NCBI GenBank assembly: GCA_035632955.1
Contig: DASQFU010000032.1
Span: 1 to 62,261 of the forward strand
From: Candidatus Limnocylindria bacterium
GTDB taxonomy: Bacteria; Eisenbacteria; RBG-16-71-46
Reading direction: 5' to 3'
DNA: 62,261 nucleotides
The position numbers were made by a program, and so were the translations under genes. Positions 12,935-31,757 of the stretch are shown in pieces; positions within the stretch are counted from its first letter, which is position 1; each line of letters starts with the position of its first letter. A model generated the notes under the pieces. The model saw only the letters and a list, made by a program, of their open reading frames with translations, did no database searches and was not told where the DNA came from.

Positions 12935-13420
12935 TCAGGTTGCTTCGGAAGCAGTCTCGTGCCCCTGGAGCGCCTCCACGTACTCCTCGGGCAGCCGGTG
13001 ATGGCGCGCGCCGGCCAGTATCGTGTCCAGGTAGCGGCGCGACGGGGGCGAGGGATTCGAGGGGCGCGCCAGATACGCGGCCGCGCGCACTCGCCGCGGC
13101 ACCGAGCCGTCGTCCGGCCGCACCAGCTCCACGGTGATCAGCTCGCGGTCGTAGAGATTGTGCTGGTTGCCGGGCCCCTGGAATCCCTCCAGCCGATCGA
13201 GGGTCGCGAGATCCTCGTCGCCGACTTCGTGGATCATTCCCCACACCGTCTGACCATGTGCATGCGTCACGCTCGCCATGCCGCCGCCCCAGTGATCGGA
13301 GTAGCGCGGGAACACGAGCCGGTGGTCGTGCAACACGGCGAGCCCGACCATGTGGTGCCCGGGCGCGCGCTCGCGCATCTGCGCGGGATTCAAGTTGGAT
13401 GCGTAGGCGAAGTAGAGCAT
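12935..13420 (-). CDS. Gamma-glutamylcyclotransferase family protein
   Basis: MLYFAYASNL, LDRLEG, PSRRYLDTILAGA. Confidence 0.88.
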   Translation of the reverse strand: MLYFAYASNLNPAQMRERAPGHHMVGLAVLHDHRLVFPRYSDHWGGGMASVTHAHGQTVWGMIHEVGDEDLATLDRLEGFQGPGNQHNLYDRELITVELVRPDDGSVPRRVRAAAYLARPSNPSPPSRRYLDTILAGARHHRLPEEYVEALQGHETASEAT

Positions 13421-13596
13421 GTGGCGCGAGATTCCTCCCCGTTCACGTCGGCCAGAATACCGCAAATCGCGAGGGATCGAGGCGGAGCAAGCCGGACGGC
13501 GCGCCGCTCCGTTGTCAGGCCAGAAGGTCGCGGCTATGATTTCGCCCGCTTCGGTCGCGCACGTCTGCTTTCCAGGTCCAGAATGCACGGAGACAT

Positions 13597-14328
13597 GTGA
13601 TGTCCCTGGATTTCCTCGCTTTCGGCCCGCATCCCGACGACGCCGAGATCGGAGCCGGAGCGCTGCTCCGGAAGATGAAGGCGCTCGGGCACTCGACCGG
13701 CATCGTCGACATGACGACGGGAGACATGGGCTGGGGCACCCCCGAGATTCGCGCGGGAGAGAGCGATGAGGCCGCGAAGATCCTCAAGCTGGACGTGCGG
13801 GAGAATCTCGATCTCGGCGATGGCCGCATCGAAGACACCTTTGAGAATCGCTGCGCCGTTTCGGCCGTGATCCGGAAGCATCGGCCGCAGATCCTCCTCT
13901 CCCCTTATTACCAGTTGCCGATCGGTCGTGGCCTCGGACACAACGACCACTACAAGACCGGACAGCTGGTCGCGAACGCCTTCAATCTCGCGCATCTGCG
14001 CAAGGCGCCGGTCCCGGGCGAGCCGCACCAGGCGAAGGCCGTCTTCTTCTACTTCCTGCCGCCAGGAACGCCGCCGACCTTTATCGTCGACGTGACCGAG
14101 CACTTCGACGACTGGATGGCCGCGATCAACTGCCATCGGAGTCAGTTCGCCAATCCCGAGCGGCCGCGGCCCGCGAGCGTCCCCGCGGTGACCGAGGTCT
14201 TCGAGTCGTATGCTCGCTACTGGGGCTGGCAGATCGGCGTGCGCTATGCACAGGCATACCTGTCGGTCACGCCGCTGCGGATCGGCGACCCTTTGTTTCT
14301 CGTCAAGGACGTGGTGGCTCGACCCTGA
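13597..14328 (+). CDS. bshB1: PIG-L family deacetylase, bacillithiol BshB1-like
   Basis: FGPHPDDAEIG, VDMTTGD, IRKHRP, HNDH, AINCHRSQF. Confidence 0.8.
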   Translation: MMSLDFLAFGPHPDDAEIGAGALLRKMKALGHSTGIVDMTTGDMGWGTPEIRAGESDEAAKILKLDVRENLDLGDGRIEDTFENRCAVSAVIRKHRPQILLSPYYQLPIGRGLGHNDHYKTGQLVANAFNLAHLRKAPVPGEPHQAKAVFFYFLPPGTPPTFIVDVTEHFDDWMAAINCHRSQFANPERPRPASVPAVTEVFESYARYWGWQIGVRYAQAYLSVTPLRIGDPLFLVKDVVARP

Positions 14329-14347
14329 CCGCCGTCGGAGGTTTCGC

Positions 14348-16081
14348 ATGAATAGGTGGATGATCGCGCTGATGTTGCTGGGATGCGTGGCGGCCGCCCC
14401 GGCGCTCGCGGCCGACGGCCCGGACGCGCGCTTCTCGGCGATGGCCGAGGAGTATCTGGCGCGCTGGCTTGCTCGCGCCCCGCACGTCGCGACCCGGCTC
14501 GGTGTCCACGACGGCGATGCGCTGCTCTACCCCGTCACCGAAGCGACCGTGGCGGAGGACGTCGTCTGGCTCAAGCGCTTTCGCTCGCGCCTCGAGGCGG
14601 TCCCCCGCGCGCGACTATCCTTCGACAACGCGCTCGACCGGGACGTGCTCGCCGCTCGCATCGAGCGCGAGCTGTTGAACCTCGAGGTGATCCGGCCCTT
14701 CGAGCGCAATCCCAACTTCTATCTCGACCTGATCGCCGGCTCGGTCCAGTCGCTGCTCCAGCGCAACTTTGCCTCCCCGTGCGAACGGATCCGCTCCGCC
14801 TCGCGCCGGCTGGCGCGCGTGCCCGAAGTACTGCGGGCCGCGAAGCTCAACCTGCGGAACCCCCCGAAAATCTACACGGAAGTGGCGATCACGCAGTATC
14901 AGGGCGCTCTGCGCTTCTACCGCGAAGTCGTGCCGGCGCTGGCGCGCGGATGCAAGGATTCCCAGGCGCAGGCCGGCCTCGCCGAAGCCGACTCGTCGGC
15001 GGTCAAGGCGGTCGAGAGCTTCCTCGCCTTTTTGCGCGAGGATCTACTGCCGGCCTCGACCGGCAGCTATGCGCTCGGCCGCGAGGTCTACCAGCGCAAG
15101 CTCGCGGCCGACGAGATGGAAACCACTCCGGTCGATACGCTGCTCGCCATGGCGTGGGCGGCGCTCGAAGAGCATCGCGTGCGGATGGAAGCGCTGGCGT
15201 CGCAGATCGCGCCGGGGCAGGGAGTGGCGGCGGCGCTCGACTCGCTCGAGCAGGAGCGCCCCGAGGCGTCGCAGCTCGTGCCGTTCATCGCCGCGCAGCT
15301 CGACACGATCCGCGATTTCCTGCGCCAGGCCGACGTGATCACGATGCCGGCGAAGGAGAACCTGAAGGTGCGCGAGACGCCTTTGTTTCAGCGCAGCCTC
15401 TCGTTCGCGTCGATGGATTCACCCGGCGTCTGGGAGAAGCGCGCCACCGAGGCGTATTACAACGTGACGCCGGTGGACCCATCCTGGACCGAGCAGCAGA
15501 AGCAGGATCACCTCGGCTTCTTCAATCGTTATGCGTCGGAGATCGTCTCGATCCACGAGGCGTTGCCCGGGCACTACTATCAGTTCCTCGTGCTCAAGAA
15601 GGTGCCGTCGCGGCTGCGCCAGGTGCTGGGCGCCGGGAGCAACGTCGAGGGTTGGGCGCACTATTGCGAGCAGATGATGCTCGAGCAAGGCTACGGGGGT
15701 GGCGACCCGCGCTACCAACTCGCGCAACTGGTGCTCGCCATTCGGCGGATCGGCCGATTCATCGCCGGCATTTCGCTGCACACGCAAGGCATGACTTACG
15801 AGCAAGCGGTCCAGCTCTTCCAGGAGCGCTGCTACATGGAACCGGTGAACGCGGAACGCGAGGCGCGCCGCGGCACCTCGGACCCGACCTACCTCGTCTA
15901 CACGCTCGGGAAGTGGCGGATCCTCGAGCTGCGGGCGGAGGTGAAGCAGCGGCTCGGGGACCGATTCCGGCTCAAAGCCTTCCACGATGCCCTGCTGAGC
16001 CAGGGCAGCGCCGCCCTGCCGGTGGTTCGCGCCGGCGTGTTGCGCGAGCTGACGGGCGACGCCACGGACCGCGGCGAGTGA
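14348..16081 (+). CDS. DUF885 family secreted protein (putative metallopeptidase)
   Basis: Signal peptide MNRWMIALMLLGCVAAAPALA; HEALPGHYYQ and EGWAHYCE motifs; YTLGK near the C-terminus. Confidence 0.88.
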   Translation: MNRWMIALMLLGCVAAAPALAADGPDARFSAMAEEYLARWLARAPHVATRLGVHDGDALLYPVTEATVAEDVVWLKRFRSRLEAVPRARLSFDNALDRDVLAARIERELLNLEVIRPFERNPNFYLDLIAGSVQSLLQRNFASPCERIRSASRRLARVPEVLRAAKLNLRNPPKIYTEVAITQYQGALRFYREVVPALARGCKDSQAQAGLAEADSSAVKAVESFLAFLREDLLPASTGSYALGREVYQRKLAADEMETTPVDTLLAMAWAALEEHRVRMEALASQIAPGQGVAAALDSLEQERPEASQLVPFIAAQLDTIRDFLRQADVITMPAKENLKVRETPLFQRSLSFASMDSPGVWEKRATEAYYNVTPVDPSWTEQQKQDHLGFFNRYASEIVSIHEALPGHYYQFLVLKKVPSRLRQVLGAGSNVEGWAHYCEQMMLEQGYGGGDPRYQLAQLVLAIRRIGRFIAGISLHTQGMTYEQAVQLFQERCYMEPVNAEREARRGTSDPTYLVYTLGKWRILELRAEVKQRLGDRFRLKAFHDALLSQGSAALPVVRAGVLRELTGDATDRGE

Positions 16082-19000
16082 AAGCCGTGACCGAACGCTT
16101 CGCCGGCCGTTACGCGCTGCTGCGGCGCCTCGGGCAGGGAGGCATGGGTGAGGTGTTCCTCGCGCGCGACCTGTCCACGCGCCGTGAATGCGCGCTCAAG
16201 CGTCTGACCGCGCCCACCGCCGCGCCGGAGATTCTGAGGCGCGAGTTCGCGGTGCTCGCCCGCCTGCAACACCCGGCCGTGGTCGCGGTCCACGAGCTGG
16301 ATTTCGCGCCCGATGGCAGCCCGTTCTACACCATGGAATACGTGCCCGGGCTGCCGGCCGACCGAGCGCTGGAGCCCGGCGACTGGCCGGGGTTCGCGTT
16401 CGCCGCGACCGAGGTGGCGCACGGGCTCGAGGTTCTTCACGGGCTGGGCGTGGTCCATGGCGACCTCAAGCCTTCCAACGTCCTGATCGTGAAACCGGCG
16501 AACGCCGGACCTCTTCCCTCGGCCGTACGCTTGCTCGATTTCGGCCTCGCCGCACTGCTCGGTCAGCCGGCGCACGGACATCGGGGCACGCCGGGCTACG
16601 CCGCGCCGGAGGTGGTGCGCGGCGAGCCGCCGTCGCCGGCCGCCGACCTCTACGGTTTCGGTGCCCTGCTGTACGCGATGATCACGGGGCGGCCGCCGTT
16701 CCAGGGCGAGAGCGCGCAGGCGTTGCTGCGCTCGCAACAGGCGGGACCGCCGCCCGCCCTGCCCCTGGCGGAGCGCGGAGCGAGCCCGGGGCTGGTTCAG
16801 CTCGTGCTGAGACTGATGGCGCCCGACCCGCGCGAGCGGCCCAGGGACGCGGGCGAGGTGCGCCGCGAGCTGGAGGGCCTCTATCCCGCCGCCCGGCGAC
16901 CGCTCGCGGATCGGCTTCAGGCCGCATCGATCGTCGGGCGCGAACGCGAGCTCGCGAGGCTCGAGCACTGGCTGGCGATGCACGCGACGCGCTCCCGCGT
17001 CGCGGTCGTCTCGGGTCCGGCAGGCGCTGGAAAGACCGTGCTGCTCGCCGAAATGGCGGCTCGCGCCGCCCTGTCCGGGCGCAGCGTCGCGCATCTGTCG
17101 TGCTCCTCGTTCGCGGAGCCGGGCGCCGTCGCTCTCGCCATCGCTCGGCGCTGGGCGGGCGTCGCGCAAGCGGAGGCGGACGAGGCTCCGGCGAATCTCG
17201 CCCCGGACCTCCGCAGCTTGCTGGCGCGTCGCTCGGCGACGTTGGACGAAAGTCATCTGGACCGGCTCGTGGAAGCGGTCGTGGCGTTGGGGCGCGCTGC
17301 CACGCGACCAGACCGCATGCCGGTCGTCTTGCTCGACGACGCCGAGCGTCTGGACCCGTTGTCGCGCGCATTCGTGATCCGGCTCGCCCTACACCCCAAG
17401 GCCGCTCCGGCGGTTTGGATCTGGGCGCGGCGCAGCGGTGAGGGAATCGACGCCGACGAGGGCGAGCGCGTGCTGCTCGAAGCCGGGGCTGCGCACCGGC
17501 TCGCGCTCGGCCCGCTGGAGGAGCCCGAGGTCGAACGACTGGTCGCCGCACGGCTGCATCAGACTCCTCCCGCCGCTCTGCTCGCGTTCTTGTGGAAGCG
17601 TGCGGCGGGACATCCGGGACTGACGGTCGCGCTGCTCCAGACCGCGGCCGCGGCGGGGGCGGTGCGCGAAAGCGACGCCGGCCTGATCGTCGACGCCGCA
17701 ACCCTGGAGACGTTGGAGCTGCCCGCCAGCTTCGAGGCGGCGCTGCTCGCCCGCTTGAAGGCACTACCCGAGCCGTCGCGTGCCGTCGCCGCGGCGTTAG
17801 CGATCTGGGGACACGGGCTCGAGCCGCGAGCGGCGCTCGAGCTGGCGAGCGCCGGACGAGCGGAACTCCTGCCGCCGGCGACGCTCGAGACGCTCGTGAG
17901 CTCAGGGCTCGCGGCGCGCGATGCCGAAGGTCGTGTGGGGCTCGCGCCGCCGGCTTTGGCCGAACGGCTGGTCGAAGGGCTTCCCTTCGAAATACGCCGC
18001 GCGCTGCATCGGGCGGCGCTCGCAGTGCCTGGACTCTCCGAAACGTCCCGGTTCCACCACCTCTCGGGAGCAGGCGACGTCGCCGCTGCGCTCGATGCCG
18101 CGGAACGAGCGCTGGCCGAGCATCCCGATCCCGGATTCGCGGCCCAAGCCGCGGCGCTGGCCGAGTCCGAGGCGCCGCAACGTGCCGCGGCCTGGCGCGA
18201 GCGTCACGCGCGCCTGCTGTCCGCCGCCGGGCGCTATGCCGACGCGATTCCGTCGTTCGAGCGGGCGCTGGCCTTGGAGCCTCGCGGCGAAACGCGGCAC
18301 ACGTTGCGAGTCGCGCTTTCGACGGCGTGCCTGCGCGCGGGCGACGCGGTGCGGCTGGCACAGGTCACGGCAGAAGCGCTGGCGGATGATCCCCCGCCCG
18401 CGCTGCGCTCGCGGATCCTGAGCAACGAGGCTGCCGGACATCTCGCGCTCGGCGCCCTGGATCGCTCGCAGGCGATCGCGCGGGAAGCTCTCGATCTCGC
18501 GGAAACCGCCGCCGATCCCGAGGCGATCGGCGTCGCATCCGTGACGCTCGGCGCGGTGCTCGGGCGGCTCGGACAGCTCAACGCCGCCGCGACTCTCGCG
18601 CGCCGCTCCTATCAGGCGCACGAGCAGTGCGGGCAGACCACGGGCTCGATCCGGGCGCTGGTGCTGCGCGGCTGGGTCGCGCACGCGCGCCAGGACCTGG
18701 CCGACGCGGACGGCGCGTATCGCGAAGCCTTGACCTTGGCGCGCGAAAATGGCCTGCGCCTGGCGCTCGAGGAAGTGCTCGTCAATCGCGCGGTGCTCCT
18801 GGGCGAGATCGGGCGCTGGAAGGAAGTGCGCGAGATCCAGGCGGAGGCCGCGCGCCTGGCACTCGAAGACGGCCGGCCGGGGGGAGCCGCGGTGGCGCTC
18901 GCCAATCTGGCGTTGCTCGAAGGACTGACCGGCGGGTCACGCTCAGCCTTGCGCAGGGCCCGCGGGGCGTTGCGGCTGGCGCGCAAGTACCTCCCGAACA

Positions 19001-21219
19001 ATCGCCCGACGGCGTTGCGTGCACTGGCTCAGGCTTACCGGTACACCGGCTGGCCGGCGAAGGCGGAACGCGGCGCCCGGCGCGCGTTGAGCCTGGCGAT
19101 CGAGATCCCTTCCGATGCCGACACGGAATGGTCGCGGATCGAGCTGATGCGTTGCTGGATGGCACTCGAGCGCTGGGAGGAAGTCAACGAGCTCGCGGAG
19201 CCGGCGCTCGACCCCCCACCGCGCATCGGCTCGATCGGTCTGATCGTGCTCGCATCGCTGGCCGGGCGCGCCGCGCTGCGAAACGGACATCTCGCGCTCG
19301 CCGAGGAGCGGCTCGCGCTGTGCAACCGCTGGCTCTCCGGGCGCGCTGCTCCCTTCGCCGCGGCCCAGACGGAAATGCTGCGAGCCGAGCTAGCCATGGC
19401 TCGCGGGAGCGCCGTGGACGGCATTCAGCACGCCGAGCAGGCATTAAAGACGCTGGCCTCTCTGCCGGCGCCGGCGGAGCGAGCCGCGGCTGCGGTCGAG
19501 TTCGTTCGCGTCGCGCTCGGGCGGCCGATCGACTCCGAACTGCCGTTCGGCGATTGGCTCGATCAGGCGGCGTCGACCTTCGAGCGACTTGGCGATCGCC
19601 GGGGGCACGCGGAGGCGCTGCGGTTGCAGGTCCAGTGGCTACGGCGGACCACGTCGGGCGCGCGCCGCACGGTACGCGATCGGGACCTGATCGAAGCCGT
19701 GAGCCGGCTGCTGAACTCGATGTCGGATCTCCGCAAGCTCACGCAGCGTGCGATGGAACTCGCCGGCGAGCAGCTCAACGCCGAACGCGGCGTGTTGTTG
19801 CTAGCTGATCCCGAGACCGGAAACCTGGAGCCGATGGCGGACTACGGCGCCGTGGACGCGACGACTCGCCACGACGCCGTGGGCTACAGCCGCCGGGTCG
19901 TCCAGCGCGTGGCCGAGAGCGGCGACAGCCTGCTGATCGGCGACGCGCCCAGCGACCCGAAGGCGCTCTCCGAGAGCGTGCTCGGCCTCGGGTTGCGCTC
20001 CATCGTGTGCGTGCCGATGTTCGTGAACGGACGCGTGGTCGGCGCCGTGTACCTGGACGACTCGCGTCGCTCGGCGACTTTCAGCGATGAGGATCGTGCT
20101 CTGCTCGAGGGGTTTGCGCAGCTCATGGCGCTCGCGATCGAGAAGAGCCGGGGCCATATCGAGGTGATGCGGGCCAACGAGGAGCTGGTCGGCGAGAACC
20201 TGGCGTTGCGTCAGGAAGCGACGGCGCGCTTCCAGCCGCGCGCGGTGATCGGCCCCAGCCTGGCGATGCAGCGCGTGATGGCAGTCGTCGAGCGAGCCGC
20301 GAACTCCTACGCCACGGTGTTGATCACCGGCGAGAACGGCACCGGCAAGGAGCTGATCGCCCGCATCCTCCACTATCACGGCAAGCGCGCCGCGATGCCG
20401 TTCGTGTCCGTGAACTGCGGGGCGATTCCCGAACAGCTCCTGGAGAGCGAGCTGTTCGGCATCCTCTCGTACGTGGCGACCGGCGTGCACGCGCGGGAGG
20501 GTCGCTTCGTCCAGGCGAACGGCGGCACGCTGTTCCTGGACGAGATCGGAGAGATGCCACTCCGCCAGCAAGTCGCGTTGCTGGCGGTGCTCGCGAACCG
20601 GGAGGTCCAACCGGTCGGCGGCGGGCCACCGATTCCCGTGGACGTCCGGATCATCGCCGCCACCAACCAGGATCTGCGCCTTCAAGTCGAGCAGGGGGCG
20701 TTCCGCCGCGATCTCTACTACCGTCTCAACGTCGTCCCGATCGAAGTGCCGCCGTTGCGCGAGCGTAAGGCGGACATCCCGACACTTGCCCGGCACTTCC
20801 TGGCCGAGTTCGCGCGCCAGCAGGAGCGCGAAGTGCCCGGGCTTTCGCCCAACTTCCTCGCCGTCCTGATGCAGAGCGATTGGTCGGGCAACGTGCGCGA
20901 GCTCCAGAACTACGTCGAGCGCGTGCTGGCGATGACCCCGGGCGATCTCCTCGAGCCCATTCCGCTTCCGCGCGATCTCGAGGACCGCGCCGGCTCGTTT
21001 CGCGTCAGGAGCGGACATACTTTGGGCGAGATGGTGGAAGCGCTCGAGCGCCGCATCATACTGGAGACGCTGGAGCGAGCCGGCGGCAACCAAAGCCTGG
21101 CGGCGCGCGAGCTTGGGATGACGGAACAGTCGATGCGCTACCGTATCCGCAAGTACGACCTCGGCTACCCTCGCCAGAATCAGCGATTTCGTTTAAACAG
21201 GCGAAACCGGCCCAACTAA
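16078..21219 (+). CDS. Hybrid Ser/Thr kinase - STAND/AAA ATPase - TPR - GAF - sigma54-type AAA+ - Fis HTH regulator (1713 aa)
   Basis: Kinase LGQGGMGEV, ALK, HGDLKPSN, DFG, GTPGYAAPE; GRERELARL, GPAGAGKT, VLLDDAE; helical repeats; GAF (SIVCVPM...VGAVYLD); GENGTGKE, LFLDEI, IIAATN, FRRDLYYRL, GNVRELQN; GNQSLAARELG; GTGA overlap with the DUF885 stop. Confidence 0.93.
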   Translation: MKAVTERFAGRYALLRRLGQGGMGEVFLARDLSTRRECALKRLTAPTAAPEILRREFAVLARLQHPAVVAVHELDFAPDGSPFYTMEYVPGLPADRALEPGDWPGFAFAATEVAHGLEVLHGLGVVHGDLKPSNVLIVKPANAGPLPSAVRLLDFGLAALLGQPAHGHRGTPGYAAPEVVRGEPPSPAADLYGFGALLYAMITGRPPFQGESAQALLRSQQAGPPPALPLAERGASPGLVQLVLRLMAPDPRERPRDAGEVRRELEGLYPAARRPLADRLQAASIVGRERELARLEHWLAMHATRSRVAVVSGPAGAGKTVLLAEMAARAALSGRSVAHLSCSSFAEPGAVALAIARRWAGVAQAEADEAPANLAPDLRSLLARRSATLDESHLDRLVEAVVALGRAATRPDRMPVVLLDDAERLDPLSRAFVIRLALHPKAAPAVWIWARRSGEGIDADEGERVLLEAGAAHRLALGPLEEPEVERLVAARLHQTPPAALLAFLWKRAAGHPGLTVALLQTAAAAGAVRESDAGLIVDAATLETLELPASFEAALLARLKALPEPSRAVAAALAIWGHGLEPRAALELASAGRAELLPPATLETLVSSGLAARDAEGRVGLAPPALAERLVEGLPFEIRRALHRAALAVPGLSETSRFHHLSGAGDVAAALDAAERALAEHPDPGFAAQAAALAESEAPQRAAAWRERHARLLSAAGRYADAIPSFERALALEPRGETRHTLRVALSTACLRAGDAVRLAQVTAEALADDPPPALRSRILSNEAAGHLALGALDRSQAIAREALDLAETAADPEAIGVASVTLGAVLGRLGQLNAAATLARRSYQAHEQCGQTTGSIRALVLRGWVAHARQDLADADGAYREALTLARENGLRLALEEVLVNRAVLLGEIGRWKEVREIQAEAARLALEDGRPGGAAVALANLALLEGLTGGSRSALRRARGALRLARKYLPNNRPTALRALAQAYRYTGWPAKAERGARRALSLAIEIPSDADTEWSRIELMRCWMALERWEEVNELAEPALDPPPRIGSIGLIVLASLAGRAALRNGHLALAEERLALCNRWLSGRAAPFAAAQTEMLRAELAMARGSAVDGIQHAEQALKTLASLPAPAERAAAAVEFVRVALGRPIDSELPFGDWLDQAASTFERLGDRRGHAEALRLQVQWLRRTTSGARRTVRDRDLIEAVSRLLNSMSDLRKLTQRAMELAGEQLNAERGVLLLADPETGNLEPMADYGAVDATTRHDAVGYSRRVVQRVAESGDSLLIGDAPSDPKALSESVLGLGLRSIVCVPMFVNGRVVGAVYLDDSRRSATFSDEDRALLEGFAQLMALAIEKSRGHIEVMRANEELVGENLALRQEATARFQPRAVIGPSLAMQRVMAVVERAANSYATVLITGENGTGKELIARILHYHGKRAAMPFVSVNCGAIPEQLLESELFGILSYVATGVHAREGRFVQANGGTLFLDEIGEMPLRQQVALLAVLANREVQPVGGGPPIPVDVRIIAATNQDLRLQVEQGAFRRDLYYRLNVVPIEVPPLRERKADIPTLARHFLAEFARQQEREVPGLSPNFLAVLMQSDWSGNVRELQNYVERVLAMTPGDLLEPIPLPRDLEDRAGSFRVRSGHTLGEMVEALERRIILETLERAGGNQSLAARELGMTEQSMRYRIRKYDLGYPRQNQRFRLNRRNRPN

Positions 21220-21372
21220 CTCTCACGCAATCGAATAAACCTCGTCCACCACCCGCAGATCGCCGAAGTCGGCGATGGTGGGATCGTTGGGTGGCGAACG
21301 ATCGCTCGATCTTGATCTGATAAACCTCAACGTTGCAATCGAATAGAGGCATCTCGCGGGACCGGACGGACA

Positions 21373-21388
21373 TGGCACGGTCCTGGCC
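21373..21388 (+). promoter_or_regulatory. Candidate sigma54 (-24/-12) promoter of the downstream three-gene operon
   Basis: TGGCACG-GTCC-TGGC; GG at 21374-21375 and GC at 21386-21387, 48 nt before the ATG at 21436. Confidence 0.6.
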
Positions 21389-21435
21389 TTCATGAGTTTT
21401 CCTAACTCGCCGGGAAACCACTCATGGAGGTCGTC

Positions 21436-21729
21436 ATGCGATCTAACCGCAGGACTCTTTTCGTCGCGTTTCTGATCAGCGCCGCGCTCGTCTTTGGCTC
21501 GCAGTCCGCATTCGCTCAGTTCACCGGAAATCCGCCTTCCGGCGGCAGCTCGATGAGGCCGACAGGCGGCGAGCCCAGCGCGCCGGCACCCGCCATCGGC
21601 TCGCGGACTCCGGTCTTCGGGCACGGAATCGCGCGGCCCTTCGTCTCGAGCTCGTGGGTTTCCCGTACCGGGCTCGCGCTTCGAAGCACGTCGTTCCGCG
21701 TCTGGCAGAGTGTTCTGCTGCCGTTCTGA
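21436..21729 (+). CDS. Small secreted protein (97 aa), unknown function
   Basis: RBS GGAGG at 21426-21430; signal peptide ending ..SAFA|Q; Gly/Ser/Pro-rich middle; amphipathic C-terminus. Confidence 0.75.
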   Translation: MRSNRRTLFVAFLISAALVFGSQSAFAQFTGNPPSGGSSMRPTGGEPSAPAPAIGSRTPVFGHGIARPFVSSSWVSRTGLALRSTSFRVWQSVLLPF

Positions 21730-22280
21730 TGACAATGATGGCGTCGCGTCAGCCCCAGCGAGTGGCCAGGGGGGCTCTGCATTCGCCCCCCGAGCAGCTC
21801 GTTCTGCGCCATCGCCACAGCCTGACGAACGTGCTGCTGCTCGGCGGTTCGGCGAGCGAGCGTCTCCGTTTGGCGCGCGCCTTCCACCGCGAGAGTCCGC
21901 TCCGACTCGGCTCGTTCGTGCCGGTCGACTGTGCCCGGCAGGAGGCCGCACTGCGCGCGGCGCTGAGCGGCTGGGTCTCTGCGGCGGGGCCGGGACCGAC
22001 GGCACATGGTCTGCAGAGCGCCGAGCACGGCACGTTGTTCCTCGACGACGTCGATCGACTCGGCGTCGATTCTCAGCGTTTGCTGATGACGCTCGCCACC
22101 AGCTCGCTCGGCGACCGCTGGTTCGCGGAGTCGACGCCGCGCGTGGGCCGTTTGGTCTGCGGCAACGCCGCTGATCTCGCCACCGTCGCGGCCGAGGGCC
22201 GGTTTCTGCCGGCGCTGTTCGACGCCCTGGACAAGATTCGTGTCGAGCTGGATGTCGTTTCACGCGGAGGGGCGGCCTGA
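21729..22280 (+). CDS. Stand-alone degenerate sigma54-activator AAA+ domain (pseudo-ATPase)
   Basis: TGATG coupling; NVLLLG...ARAFHRES...FVPVDC...AEHGTLFLDDV...SQRLL...GRF aligns with the NtrC AAA+ core, but Walker A Lys, GAFTGA and Arg fingers are absent. Confidence 0.78.
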   Translation: MTMMASRQPQRVARGALHSPPEQLVLRHRHSLTNVLLLGGSASERLRLARAFHRESPLRLGSFVPVDCARQEAALRAALSGWVSAAGPGPTAHGLQSAEHGTLFLDDVDRLGVDSQRLLMTLATSSLGDRWFAESTPRVGRLVCGNAADLATVAAEGRFLPALFDALDKIRVELDVVSRGGAA

Positions 22281-22657
22281 TGCTGCGCGGCTCCCCCGCG
22301 ATCGTGTTGTTGAGCGCCCGACCGGAAGCGCACGCAATCCTCGTCGATTCGCTGTGCGAAAGAGGCGTGACCGTCCGTGTCGCACGCCCTCCGGTCCGGG
22401 CGCTCTCTTGGCTGCGGGCAGAGCCCGAGCTGGTGCTGATCGATCTCGTGCACGGCGCGGGATTGAGTCCACAACTGGTCACGGCTCTGAACTCCAGACG
22501 CGGGCGCACTCGCGTGCTGGCGCTTCACTGTGGTGGGTTCGGGAATGATTCGTCGATGGCCGGCCTGACCGTCGACGGATTCTGCCGCGCCGATGCGACT
22601 GATTTCATCGCCGGCGCCCTGTCGACCTGCCGGCGGGTTCCCGCGACCACCCATTGA
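22280..22657 (+). CDS. Atypical single-domain response regulator receiver
   Basis: TGATG coupling; (beta/alpha)5 pattern with PELVLIDL; no acidic pocket and no conserved KP. Confidence 0.65.
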   Translation: MLRGSPAIVLLSARPEAHAILVDSLCERGVTVRVARPPVRALSWLRAEPELVLIDLVHGAGLSPQLVTALNSRRGRTRVLALHCGGFGNDSSMAGLTVDGFCRADATDFIAGALSTCRRVPATTH

Positions 22658-22891
22658 GCTCGGCACGTCACGTGCCTGCTCCTAGGCGCGGTACGTGTTT
22701 TGACCCCAATGTGACCCCGTGTCGTGCAAGACGCCCGTCCCGGGGATTGCAAACGGACAACGTGGACATCCAGCACGACCCGCGTTGACCCGCACGCATC
22801 GTAAGCCCTAAATTGGTTCGATCGATTGCCGACCATGGATGGCTCGGCACTCCCACCCGCCCCCTCGGCGCATACGATCAGGAGGTTGTTC

Positions 22892-23818
22892 ATGTCGCTC
22901 CGCGCCCAGCGACTTTGGGGTGCTTTGCTCCTCATCGTCTTGACTGCGTTGCCGACCACGACGGTCACCCGCATCGCCGAAGCGCAATCCTCGTCCGGTC
23001 CGTCGGTTCAGAAGCGGACGATCACCCGATCGACCGCGAAGCGAAAGGTGCGGCGGCGTGTCCGCCGGGCCCCGCCGGGCGGCGTGTGGGCCCGGAACGC
23101 GATCGTCATGGATCCGGCGACCGGCGAGATCCTCTACGAGAAGAACTCGAGCAGCGCCGTGCCGATCGCGAGCCTGACGAAGCTCATGACGTCCTTGGTG
23201 TTCCTGGAGCAGTCCCCTGACCTCGAGCGCGAAGTCGAAGTCACGCAAATCGAGCTCAGCGGAGCCGGACGGACGAAGCTCCGTAGCGGCGAGCGCGTGA
23301 GGCTCGACGATCTCCTGCACATGAGCCTGATGGTCTCCGACAACGCGGCGACCCGGGTGCTGGTGCGTGAGTCGGGACTCGGCACCGAAGACTTCCTGGC
23401 ACGGATGAACAGCAAGACCGTCGAGATCGGGCTCGCCCGCACTCGGTTCGTCGAGTTCACGGGTCTCGACGAACGCAACGTATCGACCGCCGCCGACTGC
23501 GCGCGGCTCCTGCGCGCCGCTGCGGAACATCCCGTCGTGCAGAAGATCAGCACGACTCGGACGCACGAGTTCCGCTCCGCGACGCGGCAGCACCTGTTCG
23601 GCAACACCAATCGGCTGGTGTACGGCCGCTACGAAGTCCTCGGCGGCAAGACCGGATTCATCAACGAGGCCGGCTACTGCCTCGCCACCTGGGTCCGGAC
23701 TCAGGGACGCGACATGATCGCCGTCGTCCTCGGCGCTCCCACCGCGGCGACCCGTTTTGCGGACGTCACCCGCCTCGTCCAGCGCACCACGACGCCCGCC
23801 GTTACCGCGACCCACTAA
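22892..23818 (+). CDS. D-alanyl-D-alanine peptidase, S11 family (PBP7/PbpG-like)
   Basis: RBS AGGAGG; signal peptide; ASLTK (SxxK), SDN, GKTGF. Confidence 0.93.
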   Translation: MSLRAQRLWGALLLIVLTALPTTTVTRIAEAQSSSGPSVQKRTITRSTAKRKVRRRVRRAPPGGVWARNAIVMDPATGEILYEKNSSSAVPIASLTKLMTSLVFLEQSPDLEREVEVTQIELSGAGRTKLRSGERVRLDDLLHMSLMVSDNAATRVLVRESGLGTEDFLARMNSKTVEIGLARTRFVEFTGLDERNVSTAADCARLLRAAAEHPVVQKISTTRTHEFRSATRQHLFGNTNRLVYGRYEVLGGKTGFINEAGYCLATWVRTQGRDMIAVVLGAPTAATRFADVTRLVQRTTTPAVTATH

Positions 23819-30551: not shown

Positions 30552-31757
30552 TCAGCCGGCGCGCACGGCGGTCACGTGGTGTTTGAGGCGGGCGGCCGCC
30601 GCGACGATGTCCTCGCGCCGCGTCGCGAGCGACATCCGCACCCAGCCGCGATACTCCGCACCGAATGCGGTTCCGGGCAGCACCGCGACTCCGATCGACA
30701 GCCACTCCTCGATCAGCGCCCAGATGTCGCGCCCGGCCAGCGCCAAGCCGACGTCGGCGAACGCATAGAACGCTCCCTGCGGAGCCGGCACGCGAATCGC
30801 CGTCTGGCCCGCCAGCCCTTCGAGGAGCCGATCGCGCCGGTCCTGATAGGCGCGGCGCATGCTCTCGACCGCCGTTTGCTCACCCGTGACCGCGGCACGG
30901 GCTGCGCTCTGAACCGAAGGGAACACGCCGTGGGTCGTGTAGAAGGCGAGCAACGGCCCGAGCACGGCGCGCAGCGCCGGAGGAGCGGCGAGATAGCCGA
31001 CCCGCCATCCCGTCATCGCGTACGACTTGGAGAAGGTGTAGACGCTCAGGGTGTGCTCGCCCATGTCCGGAAGCGATCCGATGCTGTGGTGACGAGTGCC
31101 GTCGAACAACACGTGCTCGTAGGCCTCGTCGCTGATTACCCATAGATCGCGCGCGCGCGCGACGGCCGCGATCGCCTCCAGATGTTCGCGCGACAGGACG
31201 GCGCCGGTCGGGTTGTTGGGGGTGTTGAGATAGAGACCGCGCGTCTCGGGACGCAGCGCGCTCTGCAGCCGAGCCGCGAGTCCGGCCGGATCCAGGCGTC
31301 CTTCCAAAACGTCGAGATAGGCCGGCATCGTGCGGTACGTGGCGCCGTGAGCGAATCCGACCAGCTTGGGGATCGCCATCCAGTGCGGTGACAGCACCAG
31401 GACCTCGTCGCCCGCGCCGAGCAACGCCTGGAACGCCAGGTAGAGCGCATGCGTGCCGCCGTTGGTGACGACCACGTCATCGGGCTCGCACGCGATTCGA
31501 TTCTCGCGCGCCAGCTTTTCGACCAGCGCGAGTCGCAGCGGCATCGAGCCCCGCTGATCCGGATAGTGGGTCTCGCCGGCGCGAGCCGCGGCCGCGAGCG
31601 CCTCGACGACGTGCGGCGGAGTTTCGAAGTCCGGCTCGCCGCGCTCCAGATGGAGGATGTGCTCGCCGGCCAGCTCGCGGGCGCGGGCGGCGGCCATCAC
31701 CCGGCCCAGCTCGGAGGTCATCGCCAGCACCGGGCGGTCCGCGATCAGTCTGGGCAC
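30552..31757 (-). CDS. Class I/II PLP aminotransferase (aspartate aminotransferase-like)
   Basis: GEPDFETP, NTPNNPTG, SDEAYE, SKSYAMTGWRVG, VLPGTAFG. Confidence 0.95.
   Translation of the reverse strand: MPRLIADRPVLAMTSELGRVMAAARARELAGEHILHLERGEPDFETPPHVVEALAAAARAGETHYPDQRGSMPLRLALVEKLARENRIACEPDDVVVTNGGTHALYLAFQALLGAGDEVLVLSPHWMAIPKLVGFAHGATYRTMPAYLDVLEGRLDPAGLAARLQSALRPETRGLYLNTPNNPTGAVLSREHLEAIAAVARARDLWVISDEAYEHVLFDGTRHHSIGSLPDMGEHTLSVYTFSKSYAMTGWRVGYLAAPPALRAVLGPLLAFYTTHGVFPSVQSAARAAVTGEQTAVESMRRAYQDRRDRLLEGLAGQTAIRVPAPQGAFYAFADVGLALAGRDIWALIEEWLSIGVAVLPGTAFGAEYRGWVRMSLATRREDIVAAAARLKHHVTAVRAG

Follow-up and report, generated by a model that had tools for sequence, protein, structure and literature searches.

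Here, we describe a regulator-plus-target unit of Candidatus Eisenbacteria, encoded at positions 13,597 to 22,657 of a 62,261-nt contig (DASQFU010000032.1; the whole of this stretch is the window) from a 3.1-Mb metagenome-assembled genome of 247 contigs and 68% GC (66-73% within the window). Comparison of related sequences indicates that the unit is real and conserved, and the literature that we searched does not describe it; its mechanism is a proposal. At its centre stands a giant protein in which a kinase, a STAND NTPase, tetratricopeptide repeats (TPR) and a GAF domain are fused to an enhancer-binding protein of bacteria (bEBP), of the sigma-54 type, and directly downstream lie inverted repeats, a predicted sigma-54 promoter and three small genes, for an exported protein, a degenerate ("dead") AAA+ protein and a pseudo-receiver. 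The sequence evidence makes it probable, in our judgement, that the giant protein activates the adjacent promoter. Whether the locus as a whole is a self-contained, cis-linked sigma-54 regulatory unit with feedback as we propose it is, to us, evenly balanced, and the specific suggestion that the dead AAA+ protein and the pseudo-receiver feed back on the giant activator, drawn from sequence, falls somewhat short of that.

The putative activator, the adjacent promoter and the exported protein

Pfam and NCBIfam domain calls on the window proteins place a Hanks-type kinase domain (Pfam Pkinase) at residues 12-255 of the giant protein, and the motifs GQGGMGEV, ALK, HGDLKPSN (a non-RD form), DFG and APE, each present in 14-17 of the 17 orthologues checked, mark it as a predicted Ser/Thr kinase of this type. 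A STAND/AAA_16 NTPase follows at residues 285-442 (PF13191, 62.1 bits against a cut-off of 32.6); it has the P-loop, the Walker A (GPAGAGKT) and Walker B (VVLLDD) motifs and the repeat region of a STAND NTPase, and both motifs recur in many orthologues. The TPR region spans residues ~700-1040 (TPR_MalT, 33 bits, under its cut-off of 45), and the GAF domain residues 1217-1355. The sigma-54 AAA+ core and lid occupy residues 1391-1638 (PF00158, 209.6 bits against a cut-off of 20.2) with all motor motifs of a bEBP intact, namely Walker A (GENGTGKE), Walker B (LFLDEIGE), Arg fingers (FRRDLYYRL) and sensor II (GNVREL), and a Fis-type helix-turn-helix (HTH; HTH_8, E 1.5e-12) closes the chain at residues 1653-1693. 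No membrane segment is present. The HTH, the upstream dyads, the -24/-12 promoter and an rpoN gene in the genome (contig C206) together make up what appears to be the genomic context of a bEBP.

The loop that contacts sigma-54 departs from the rule. In place of GAFTGA the giant protein reads YVATGV, a loop shorter by one residue that keeps the Thr and lacks a conserved aromatic. ELFG-I-x3-(V/I/T)-A-T-(G/D/E)-V is the norm among giant-gene orthologues of families f1, f3, f5 and f17, and 16 of the 17 other bEBPs of the same genome carry G[AS]FT[GD]A. A preliminary description of the window had read the layout as that of an activator; this stands as far as the motor motifs go, but the missing GAFTGA phenylalanine had not been weighed. 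The remaining bEBP of the genome (G000:C119:3715-4416) is non-canonical in another way, with DEAFAGA as its L1 loop, GEGGTGKG as Walker A and LFLEE as Walker B. One giant-gene orthologue, L025 (G020:C201), has a near-canonical GAFTNA loop and a kinase region spread over several tblastn segments; only fragments of the DUF885 gene lie upstream, yet the dead AAA+ and pseudo-receiver genes are kept, and the locus may be recombinant or decaying.

The family is large. At least 646 relatives of the giant protein occur in a metagenome protein set, and the best 120 are mostly of ~1,700 residues with the same domains. Where they bear names at all, these are generic automatic ones such as 'Nif-specific regulatory protein' or 'sigma 54-interacting transcriptional regulator'; several NCBI copies are entered as 'sigma 54-interacting transcriptional regulator [Candidatus Eisenbacteria bacterium]'.

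Conservation was assessed against 206 genomes of the phylum, all of a single class, and 27 loci from four families (f1, to which the window belongs, f3, f5 and f17) were examined; 14-kb neighbourhoods were fetched and the window proteins mapped onto them. The neighbourhood check proposed in the preliminary description bore out its expectation, in that the activator, the -24/-12 motif, the small exported open reading frame (ORF) and the dead AAA+ gene are conserved and linked in related genomes. The giant gene ends ~0.5-0.6 kb before the dead AAA+ gene in all 17 loci reaching upstream (1.6 kb in L029), among them L037 and L038 of the same order and L039 of another family of the class, and the same arrangement is found in three further loci of f17 and in L132. 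The operon as first drawn is nonetheless conserved only in its core, since the dead AAA+ and pseudo-receiver genes are dispensable: five loci (L123-L127, from G001, G021, G007 and both copies in G144) have the giant gene without them. In these loci the giant gene is still followed directly by dyads, promoter and a signal-peptide ORF. The invariant unit is thus activator, enhancer, promoter and exported protein.

The promoter match of the preliminary description, TGGCACGGTCCTGGCC, is present, and taken alone it is not significant, because a loosened -24/-12 pattern occurs five times in the window against 5.2 expected by chance; its significance comes only from the related loci. There, GGCA(C/T)-N5-T(C/G/T)GC (GG-N10-GC) precedes the small-ORF ATG in 24 of 27 loci (17 of L020-L039, the window and six further), the pattern not being found in three f17 loci, L129-L131. 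The distance from element to ATG is 62-70 nt in family loci and ~100 nt in the order- and class-level loci L037-L039. When 22 family-level loci are aligned at the GG, GGCACG...cTCGCc.T is the sole conserved island between diverged flanks, a signature of selection on the element. The -12 region of the clade reads TCGC (TGGC in the window), the usual consensus being TTGC. Another promoter-like match, at 30787-30800, was dismissed as it lies in a minus-strand coding region.

Among the 'repeated motifs' that the preliminary description had noticed downstream of the giant gene, TCGC-N8-GCGA dyads proved to be conserved, but the other repeats did not. Box 1 recurs in most family loci, where it stands ~203 nt upstream of the -24 GG, and box 2 is found ~185 nt upstream in the window, L020, L021, L026, L027, L033, L034 and L123. 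Box 3 lies at 101-118 nt in the window, L020, L021, L023-L028, L033, L034, L036, L123 and L132, and has an equivalent at 127-141 nt in L038 and L039. A genome-wide scan of the window's own genome found the promoter combined with two boxes only at the giant-gene locus. Boxes 1 and 2 (21171-21204) fall within the last 16 codons of the giant gene, where each dyad is read as Arg-x3-Arg, and the Arg-rich C-terminal tail may be conserved for its DNA sites and not for the protein.

A signal-peptide ORF of 60-136 codons occupies the slot after the promoter in all 27 loci. In the window, the most likely start is the ATG at 21436, which has GGAGG 5 nt upstream, and not 21424. In each of the 15 family loci that made up the first set, the signal peptide ends in A-x-A before a Q (AFA before Q in the window). 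Most loci share a P-x(0-2)-GG-[STGN] motif, which stands a few residues from the mature N-terminus (QFTGNPPSGGSS in the window); then come a Pro/Gly/Ser/Thr-rich middle and a C-terminus that is basic and contains Trp. The proteins of f3, f5 and f17 are shorter and have a hydrophobic helix at the C-terminal end. The small ORFs evolve fast, as tblastn fails to connect them, and searches of Pfam, NCBIfam and PADLOC gave no match for the window protein. Their GC content at third codon positions (GC3) is 0.78 in the window and 0.80 on average over 18 loci, against 0.51 in intergenic DNA. Genome G144 has two giant-gene copies, L126 (G144:C34) and L127 (G144:C55), each with its own sigma-54 promoter and neither with a dead AAA+ gene; their signal-peptide ORFs are divergent (QITDPGPGGGG… and QLTDPPPVGGS…), and the two look like paralogous regulator-peptide pairs. 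In L029 (G003:C142), an insert of ~1.1 kb between the small ORF and the dead AAA+ gene holds two further ORFs, for a 271-residue protein with a probable signal peptide and a 96-residue hydrophobic protein.

The accessory proteins and the surroundings of the operon

The dead AAA+ protein is a stand-alone, degenerate sigma-54-type AAA+ alpha/beta subdomain. Among Pfam families it matches only Sigma54_activat and Sigma54_activ_2, and its AlphaFold2 (AF2) model (pLDDT 86.4) is closest in Foldseek to the cores of FleQ, PspF, FlrC, DmpR and NtrC1 (E 1e-10 to 1e-8), so that homology to the bEBP core is supported by the predicted fold. An alignment of 21 orthologues reveals how far it has degenerated. 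The Walker A motif GxxGxGK has become GG(S/T)xxxR, with loss of the P-loop glycines and an invariant Arg (R45); the Walker B Asp is kept and the catalytic Glu is variable; both Arg fingers are lost (FRxDLYYRL has become FLxxLxDxLDK); and there is no GAFTGA/L1 motif, lid or HTH, the chain ending after the alpha/beta subdomain. A protein of this sequence is predicted to lack ATP binding and hydrolysis, the sigma-54 contact loop, the lid and DNA binding alike. Its family nevertheless keeps invariant residues of its own (R45, G145 and L163), which argues for a retained non-enzymatic function.

The dead AAA+ proteins form a distinct group of short orthologues with 38-50% identity and E values of 1e-26 to 1e-45, against ~1e-13 for ordinary bEBPs. 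A profile of the 21 orthologues, run over the 206 genomes, gave a bimodal score distribution and located the family in ~60 of them, 53 of the 88 genomes of f1 plus members of f3, f5 and f17, and in none of the other families in this set. At least 40 copies share a contig with a giant gene that is no more than a few kb away, the remainder are at contig ends, and no copy in these genomes is demonstrably unlinked from a giant gene. Searching genome contigs with the C-terminal 513 residues of the giant protein returned only generic GAF-bEBPs of 34-48% identity, all from other phyla, at 80 loci, none of which has an ORF of the dead-AAA+ type; scores with the profile did not exceed 96 bits and the top scorers lay in full-length bEBPs. 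VATGV and the presence of the dead AAA+ gene are uncorrelated, and we therefore no longer regard the dead subunit as compensation for the loop.

The pseudo-receiver has no Pfam match at E <= 0.1, Response_reg included. Its AF2 model (pLDDT 86.8) is a (beta-alpha)5 fold of topology E-H-E-H-E-H-E-E-H whose top Foldseek hits are HupR (2jk1), NtrC1 (1zy2 and 1ny5) and PhoB at TM-scores of ~0.62-0.65, and receiver domains make up most of the top 50 at probability 1.00 and TM-scores of ~0.6-0.65; the model thus supports a CheY-like fold. At least 90% of sequences retain Asp55, the acidic Mg2+ pair (DD) is replaced by S/T-A/G, and the Thr/Ser position is His, so that, going by sequence, the full phospho-acceptor set of Asp, acidic pair, Thr/Ser and Lys is not there. 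The gene follows the dead AAA+ gene in 11 family loci (the window and ten others), with a distant form in L039, and is frequent only within the window's own family; a set of 5.8 billion proteins holds only seven relatives, none with a Pfam domain. A C-terminal His (22652-22654 in the window) ends 10 of the 11 family pseudo-receivers (…TTH, …TLH, …QPH, …LIH, …SVH), and the 20 residues before it are not conserved.

High-GC DNA yields many long spurious ORFs, and an AAA+ gene followed by a receiver gene could suggest the rearranged remains of an NtrC-type regulator; the small ORFs might then be functionless debris or chance ORFs. Three dead-AAA+ orthologues (G119:C239, G153:C146 and G158:C203) indeed have one in-frame stop each (TAG or TGA), which may reflect either occasional pseudogenisation or assembly errors. 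Such decay is, however, very hard to reconcile with frames that stay intact and constant in length across ~60 genomes from four families, with invariant residues particular to the family, with confident AF2 folds for both the dead AAA+ protein and the pseudo-receiver, with coding-type GC3 and with conserved translational coupling, and we give it hardly any credence.

Every sequence feature that the preliminary description had listed was found in its place (Table 1), among them the junctions. The bshB1-like gene is separated from the DUF885 gene by a 19-nt gap with GGAGG between the stop at 14328 and the ATG at 14348, GTGA at 16078-16081 is shared by the stop of DUF885 and the GTG start of the giant gene, and TGATG overlaps chain the three small ORFs at 21727-21731 and 22278-22282; in other loci the operon genes are separated by gaps of 1-11 nt.

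Table 1. Coordinates of genes and sites at the locus (window positions)
Feature	Position	Strand	Remarks
PIG-L family deacetylase, BshB1-like	13597..14328	+	PF02585, E 7.9e-22
DUF885 protein	14348..16081	+	N-terminal signal peptide; PF05960, E 2e-99
Giant activator (predicted), 1713 residues	16078..21219	+	Pkinase + AAA_16 + TPR + GAF + Sigma54_activat + AAA_lid_14 + HTH_8
YVATGV L1 loop codons in giant gene	20470..20487	+	replaces GAFTGA
Putative enhancer box 1, TCGCCAGAATCAGCGA	21171..21186		inside 3' end of giant gene; doubles as R-Q-N-Q-R codons
Putative enhancer box 2, TCGTTTAAACAGGCGA	21189..21204		7/8 core bases; 18 bp after box 1; doubles as R-L-N-R-R codons
Putative enhancer box 3, TCGCCGAAGTCGGCGA	21260..21275		7/8 palindromic pairs; 114 nt upstream of -24 GG
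Predicted sigma-54 -24/-12 element, TGGCACGGTCCTGGCC	21373..21388	+	predicted transcription start ~21398-21399
Small exported protein, 97 residues	21436..21729	+	signal peptide; no Pfam, NCBIfam or PADLOC match
Dead AAA+ protein, 183 residues	21729..22280	+	PF00158, E 1.6e-12, 47.9 bits against cut-off 20.2
Pseudo-receiver, 125 residues	22280..22657	+	receiver fold in AF2/Foldseek

The bshB1-like gene scores 178.9 bits against TIGR04001 (NCBIfam), slightly below the equivalog cut-off of 182.5. An orthologue lies directly upstream in L021, L023, L024, L025, L027, L028, L029 and the JGI contig L121, and DUF885 borders the giant gene on its upstream side in L021, L023, L024, L027, L029 and L121 and lies ~1.7 kb upstream in the order-level loci L037 and L038. 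The pair is thus present in many family loci and missing from several, including L028, L033, L035 and L036; DUF885 is absent from these four and from L039. The DUF885 protein has, besides its signal peptide, a HEALPGH (HExxxGH) motif, and its gene is coupled to the giant gene in many loci; that this secreted protein could be a peptidase acting on the small exported protein is pure speculation. The surroundings are conserved housekeeping synteny (PIG-L, DUF885 ... Peptidase_S11, TauE, Lon). We rejected a role in anti-phage defence, whether STAND/Avs-like or kinase-based, on this ground and because PADLOC gave only generic matches (the kinase to PD-T4-6 and mad6, the AAA+ domain to RtcR/PspF) and no effector domain is present.

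The three-gene operon probably ends at 22657, since a sigma-70-like promoter match (TTGACC-18-TAAATT, 22785-22814) precedes the Peptidase_S11 (D-Ala-D-Ala carboxypeptidase) gene at ~22891-23818. A terminator scan 3' of 22657 found none. A perfect palindrome without a T-run, GGCACGT-C-ACGTGCC, lies at 22662-22676, 5 nt past the pseudo-receiver stop; its left arm is similar to the -24 box, and it may form a Rho-independent-like hairpin or serve as a protein site. Rfam gave no match at E <= 0.1 over 13000-23500.

A proposed circuit and its alternatives

We propose that the giant protein, in the cytoplasm, would integrate inputs through its Ser/Thr kinase, its STAND nucleotide switch with a TPR sensor and its GAF domain and, once active, would assemble through its HTH on the three TCGC-N8-GCGA dyads found on both sides of its own stop codon, each dyad taking up a dimer and the three dimers sufficing for a single hexamer. 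The AAA+ ring with its VATGV L1 loop would then open the adjacent GGCACG-N4-T(C/G)GC promoter, and the transcript would encode the small Sec-exported protein as the invariant output and usually also the dead AAA+ protein and the pseudo-receiver. The dead AAA+ protein would be unable to bind or hydrolyse ATP, to donate an Arg finger or to touch sigma-54; if docked where a protomer meets its neighbour, it would either act as negative feedback, by capping or poisoning the ring, or change the way the ring assembles, and the pseudo-receiver would modulate the interaction between the dead AAA+ protein and the ring. The suggestion of feedback on the activator ring follows from the strict linkage, the bEBP-core fold and the loss of all but possible protomer docking.

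Several observations weigh against this circuit. The genome holds 17 other bEBPs, and another of them could therefore fire the promoter. The giant protein is without the L1 phenylalanine, which mutant work on PspF and NtrC is reported to have shown to be required for open-complex formation. The TCGC-N8-GCGA dyad is common, with 515 copies in the 3.1 Mb, and so cannot define a regulon alone. As the five loci without them indicate, the dead AAA+ protein and the pseudo-receiver are not required for the core circuit. Finally, the dead AAA+ protein is 28% identical to the giant AAA+ domain and 30-33% identical to other bEBPs and, being no nearer to the former, gives no hint of a dedicated interface.

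The first two of these points admit a reading in which the giant protein is not an activator at all and sits on the dyads as a repressor, anti-activator or scaffold while one of the 16 bEBPs with a canonical loop fires the promoter; the absence of the conserved aromatic from VATGV would fit. Yet VATGV, Walker A and B, Arg fingers and sensor II have been kept over four families beside the promoter, which is hard to explain without sigma-54 remodelling, and no second bEBP is consistently linked to the locus. A bEBP with GVATGV is moreover predicted to drive sigma-54 promoters in Desulfovibrio (PMC4641369). We consider a non-activating giant protein improbable.

The last two points bear on what the accessory proteins do. 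They may be co-expressed with the peptide and act elsewhere, whether on other bEBPs or two-component proteins, as their adaptors or decoys, or in the cytoplasm as partners that handle the exported protein. Apart from the dead AAA+ protein's lack of particular closeness to the giant AAA+ domain and the occurrence of the core without both proteins, the other occupants of their slots speak for this: a full REC-bEBP takes the place of the pseudo-receiver in L031 and L033 and directly follows the peptide in L124, a HisKA-like protein takes it in L035 and PAS proteins in L123 and L132, suggesting a phosphorelay link (in L036 the slot holds a Crp-like protein). A role elsewhere sits poorly, however, with a dead AAA+ gene that is never away from the giant gene where contigs permit a check, and, given that the enzymatic, DNA and sigma-54 contacts are lost, docking to a bEBP-type ring is the simplest role. 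We think it unlikely, if worth keeping in view, that these proteins act outside the circuit.

The exported protein invites a further reading, a peptide autoinduction loop like that of PlcR/PapR or other RRNPP systems, in which the protein would be processed, perhaps by DUF885, and a Q...P-x-GG fragment sensed by the TPR/STAND region so that more peptide is made. The invariant pair would fit such a loop, consisting as it does of a cytoplasmic TPR regulator and an adjacent small, Sec-exported, fast-evolving peptide with one short motif, made from the regulator's target promoter, and so would the secreted DUF885 protein translationally coupled to the regulator in many loci. Conversely, no membrane segment is present in the regulator, whose host is presumably diderm, the order- and class-level small proteins end in a hydrophobic helix and look membrane-anchored and not diffusible, DUF885 is absent from several loci, and RRNPP receptors are not STAND/bEBP proteins. 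Autoinduction of this kind strikes us as a poor bet.

Taken to its furthest extent, our preferred circuit of activation with feedback would become a peptide-centred form of signalling, not described so far, in Eisenbacteria and possibly in other uncultured phyla: the activator would drive and, directly or indirectly, sense an exported Q...P-x-GG peptide, the dead AAA+ 'decoy subunit' and the pseudo-receiver, made from the same promoter, would set the gain or end the response by intercalating in the ring, and VATGV would define a distinct class of activators without the canonical phenylalanine. This extended form is a long shot.

Textbook models of sigma-54 activation are built on the GAFTGA loop and on rings that are homomeric or heteromeric with active subunits. 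The locus matters for these models because a deep lineage retains a VATGV loop beside a conserved sigma-54 promoter and an activator whose partner is an AAA+ subdomain dead by nature. Should the dead subunit become part of the ring or cap it, bacterial transcription would provide a natural example in which a pseudo-enzyme paralogue regulates an AAA+ protein. The unit offers a minimal natural system for the question of how many active subunits a bEBP ring needs. It also provides a concrete cis-linked candidate target for a large and unstudied family of kinase/STAND/bEBP fusions, most orphan giant regulators having no known target. The source organisms are uncultured, yet the parts are small enough for reconstitution in E. 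coli.

Relation to known systems

The preliminary description knew of no system with this layout, and this holds for the literature searched: searches on kinase-bEBP fusions, pseudo-ATPase bEBPs and sigma-54 in Eisenbacteria returned no description of it. Its logic does have precedents, in FleQ/FleT and PspF/PspA, and its loop has one in DVUA0100.

The closest in logic is FleQ/FleT of Cereibacter (Rhodobacter) sphaeroides. FleT has little beyond an AAA+ core, yet is a competent activator subunit. FleQ induces this AAA+-only protein, which hetero-oligomerises with FleQ and alters its output (PMC7277832). The likeness is that an activator induces its own AAA+ partner. Unlike FleT, the dead AAA+ protein has no Walker A Lys, catalytic Glu, L1 loop or lid and neither Arg finger; its putative partner is a 1713-residue kinase/STAND/TPR/GAF fusion, and the first product of the operon is a small exported protein.

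In the phage-shock circuit, the bEBP PspF switches on a sigma-54 operon, and one product of this operon, PspA, inhibits PspF by binding to its AAA+ domain, small membrane proteins of the operon relaying an envelope signal; here too, the target operon may encode an inhibitor of its activator. Neither the small exported protein nor the pseudo-receiver matches any family of Pfam, NCBIfam or PADLOC, PspA included, the putative inhibitor is instead an AAA+ paralogue, and the activator has large sensory modules where PspF has none. The PspF/PspA circuit is mentioned in PMC4641369.

HrpR assembles with HrpS into a hetero-hexamer, and the small protein HrpV binds HrpS. Excerpts of two reports describe HrpR and HrpS as paralogous bEBPs of Pseudomonas syringae that strictly co-act at a sigma-54 promoter, with HrpV as negative regulator (PMC3105312, PMC4145663). 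In contrast to the pair proposed here, both Hrp subunits are active ATPases with DNA-binding domains, and neither is a dead alpha/beta subdomain induced by the other. An excerpt of a further report has a REC-only protein, DrdR, acting on FleQ (PMC13535131). As these sources and excerpts present them, none of FleQ/FleT, PspF/PspA, HrpR/S/V and DrdR includes an alpha/beta subdomain that stands alone and is fully degenerate, an activator of the kinase/STAND/TPR/GAF type or a first product that is an exported peptide.

RRNPP systems (PlcR/PapR, NprR/NprX, Rap/Phr) belong to Firmicutes, use sigma-70 promoters, have HTH or phosphatase outputs and require Opp import. They also place a cytoplasmic TPR regulator beside the gene for a small, Sec-exported, fast-evolving peptide; the likeness is one of gene arrangement only, as the receptor architecture is entirely different.

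For the loop, the nearest case is DVUA0100 of Desulfovibrio vulgaris Hildenborough, a bEBP with a GVATGV loop and a long uncharacterised N-terminal region that is predicted to activate adjacent sigma-54 promoters (PMC4641369). It resembles the giant protein in this loop (YVATGV or NVATGV here) and in its long N-terminal region. It differs in that no kinase or STAND module is reported for it, its targets are type III secretion operons (PMC4641369), and it is not described as having a partner of the dead AAA+ or pseudo-receiver kind. Like that proposed here, its function is a prediction.

The C-terminal 500 residues of the giant protein, with their order GAF-AAA+-HTH_8, share the architecture of GAF-type bEBPs such as NifA, NorR and FhlA, and NifA is the best NCBIfam match (362 bits, under the cut-off of 528.85). 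To this familiar core, the giant protein adds ~1200 residues with a kinase, a STAND NTPase and TPR, and it combines them with a non-canonical L1 loop and an unrelated target operon.

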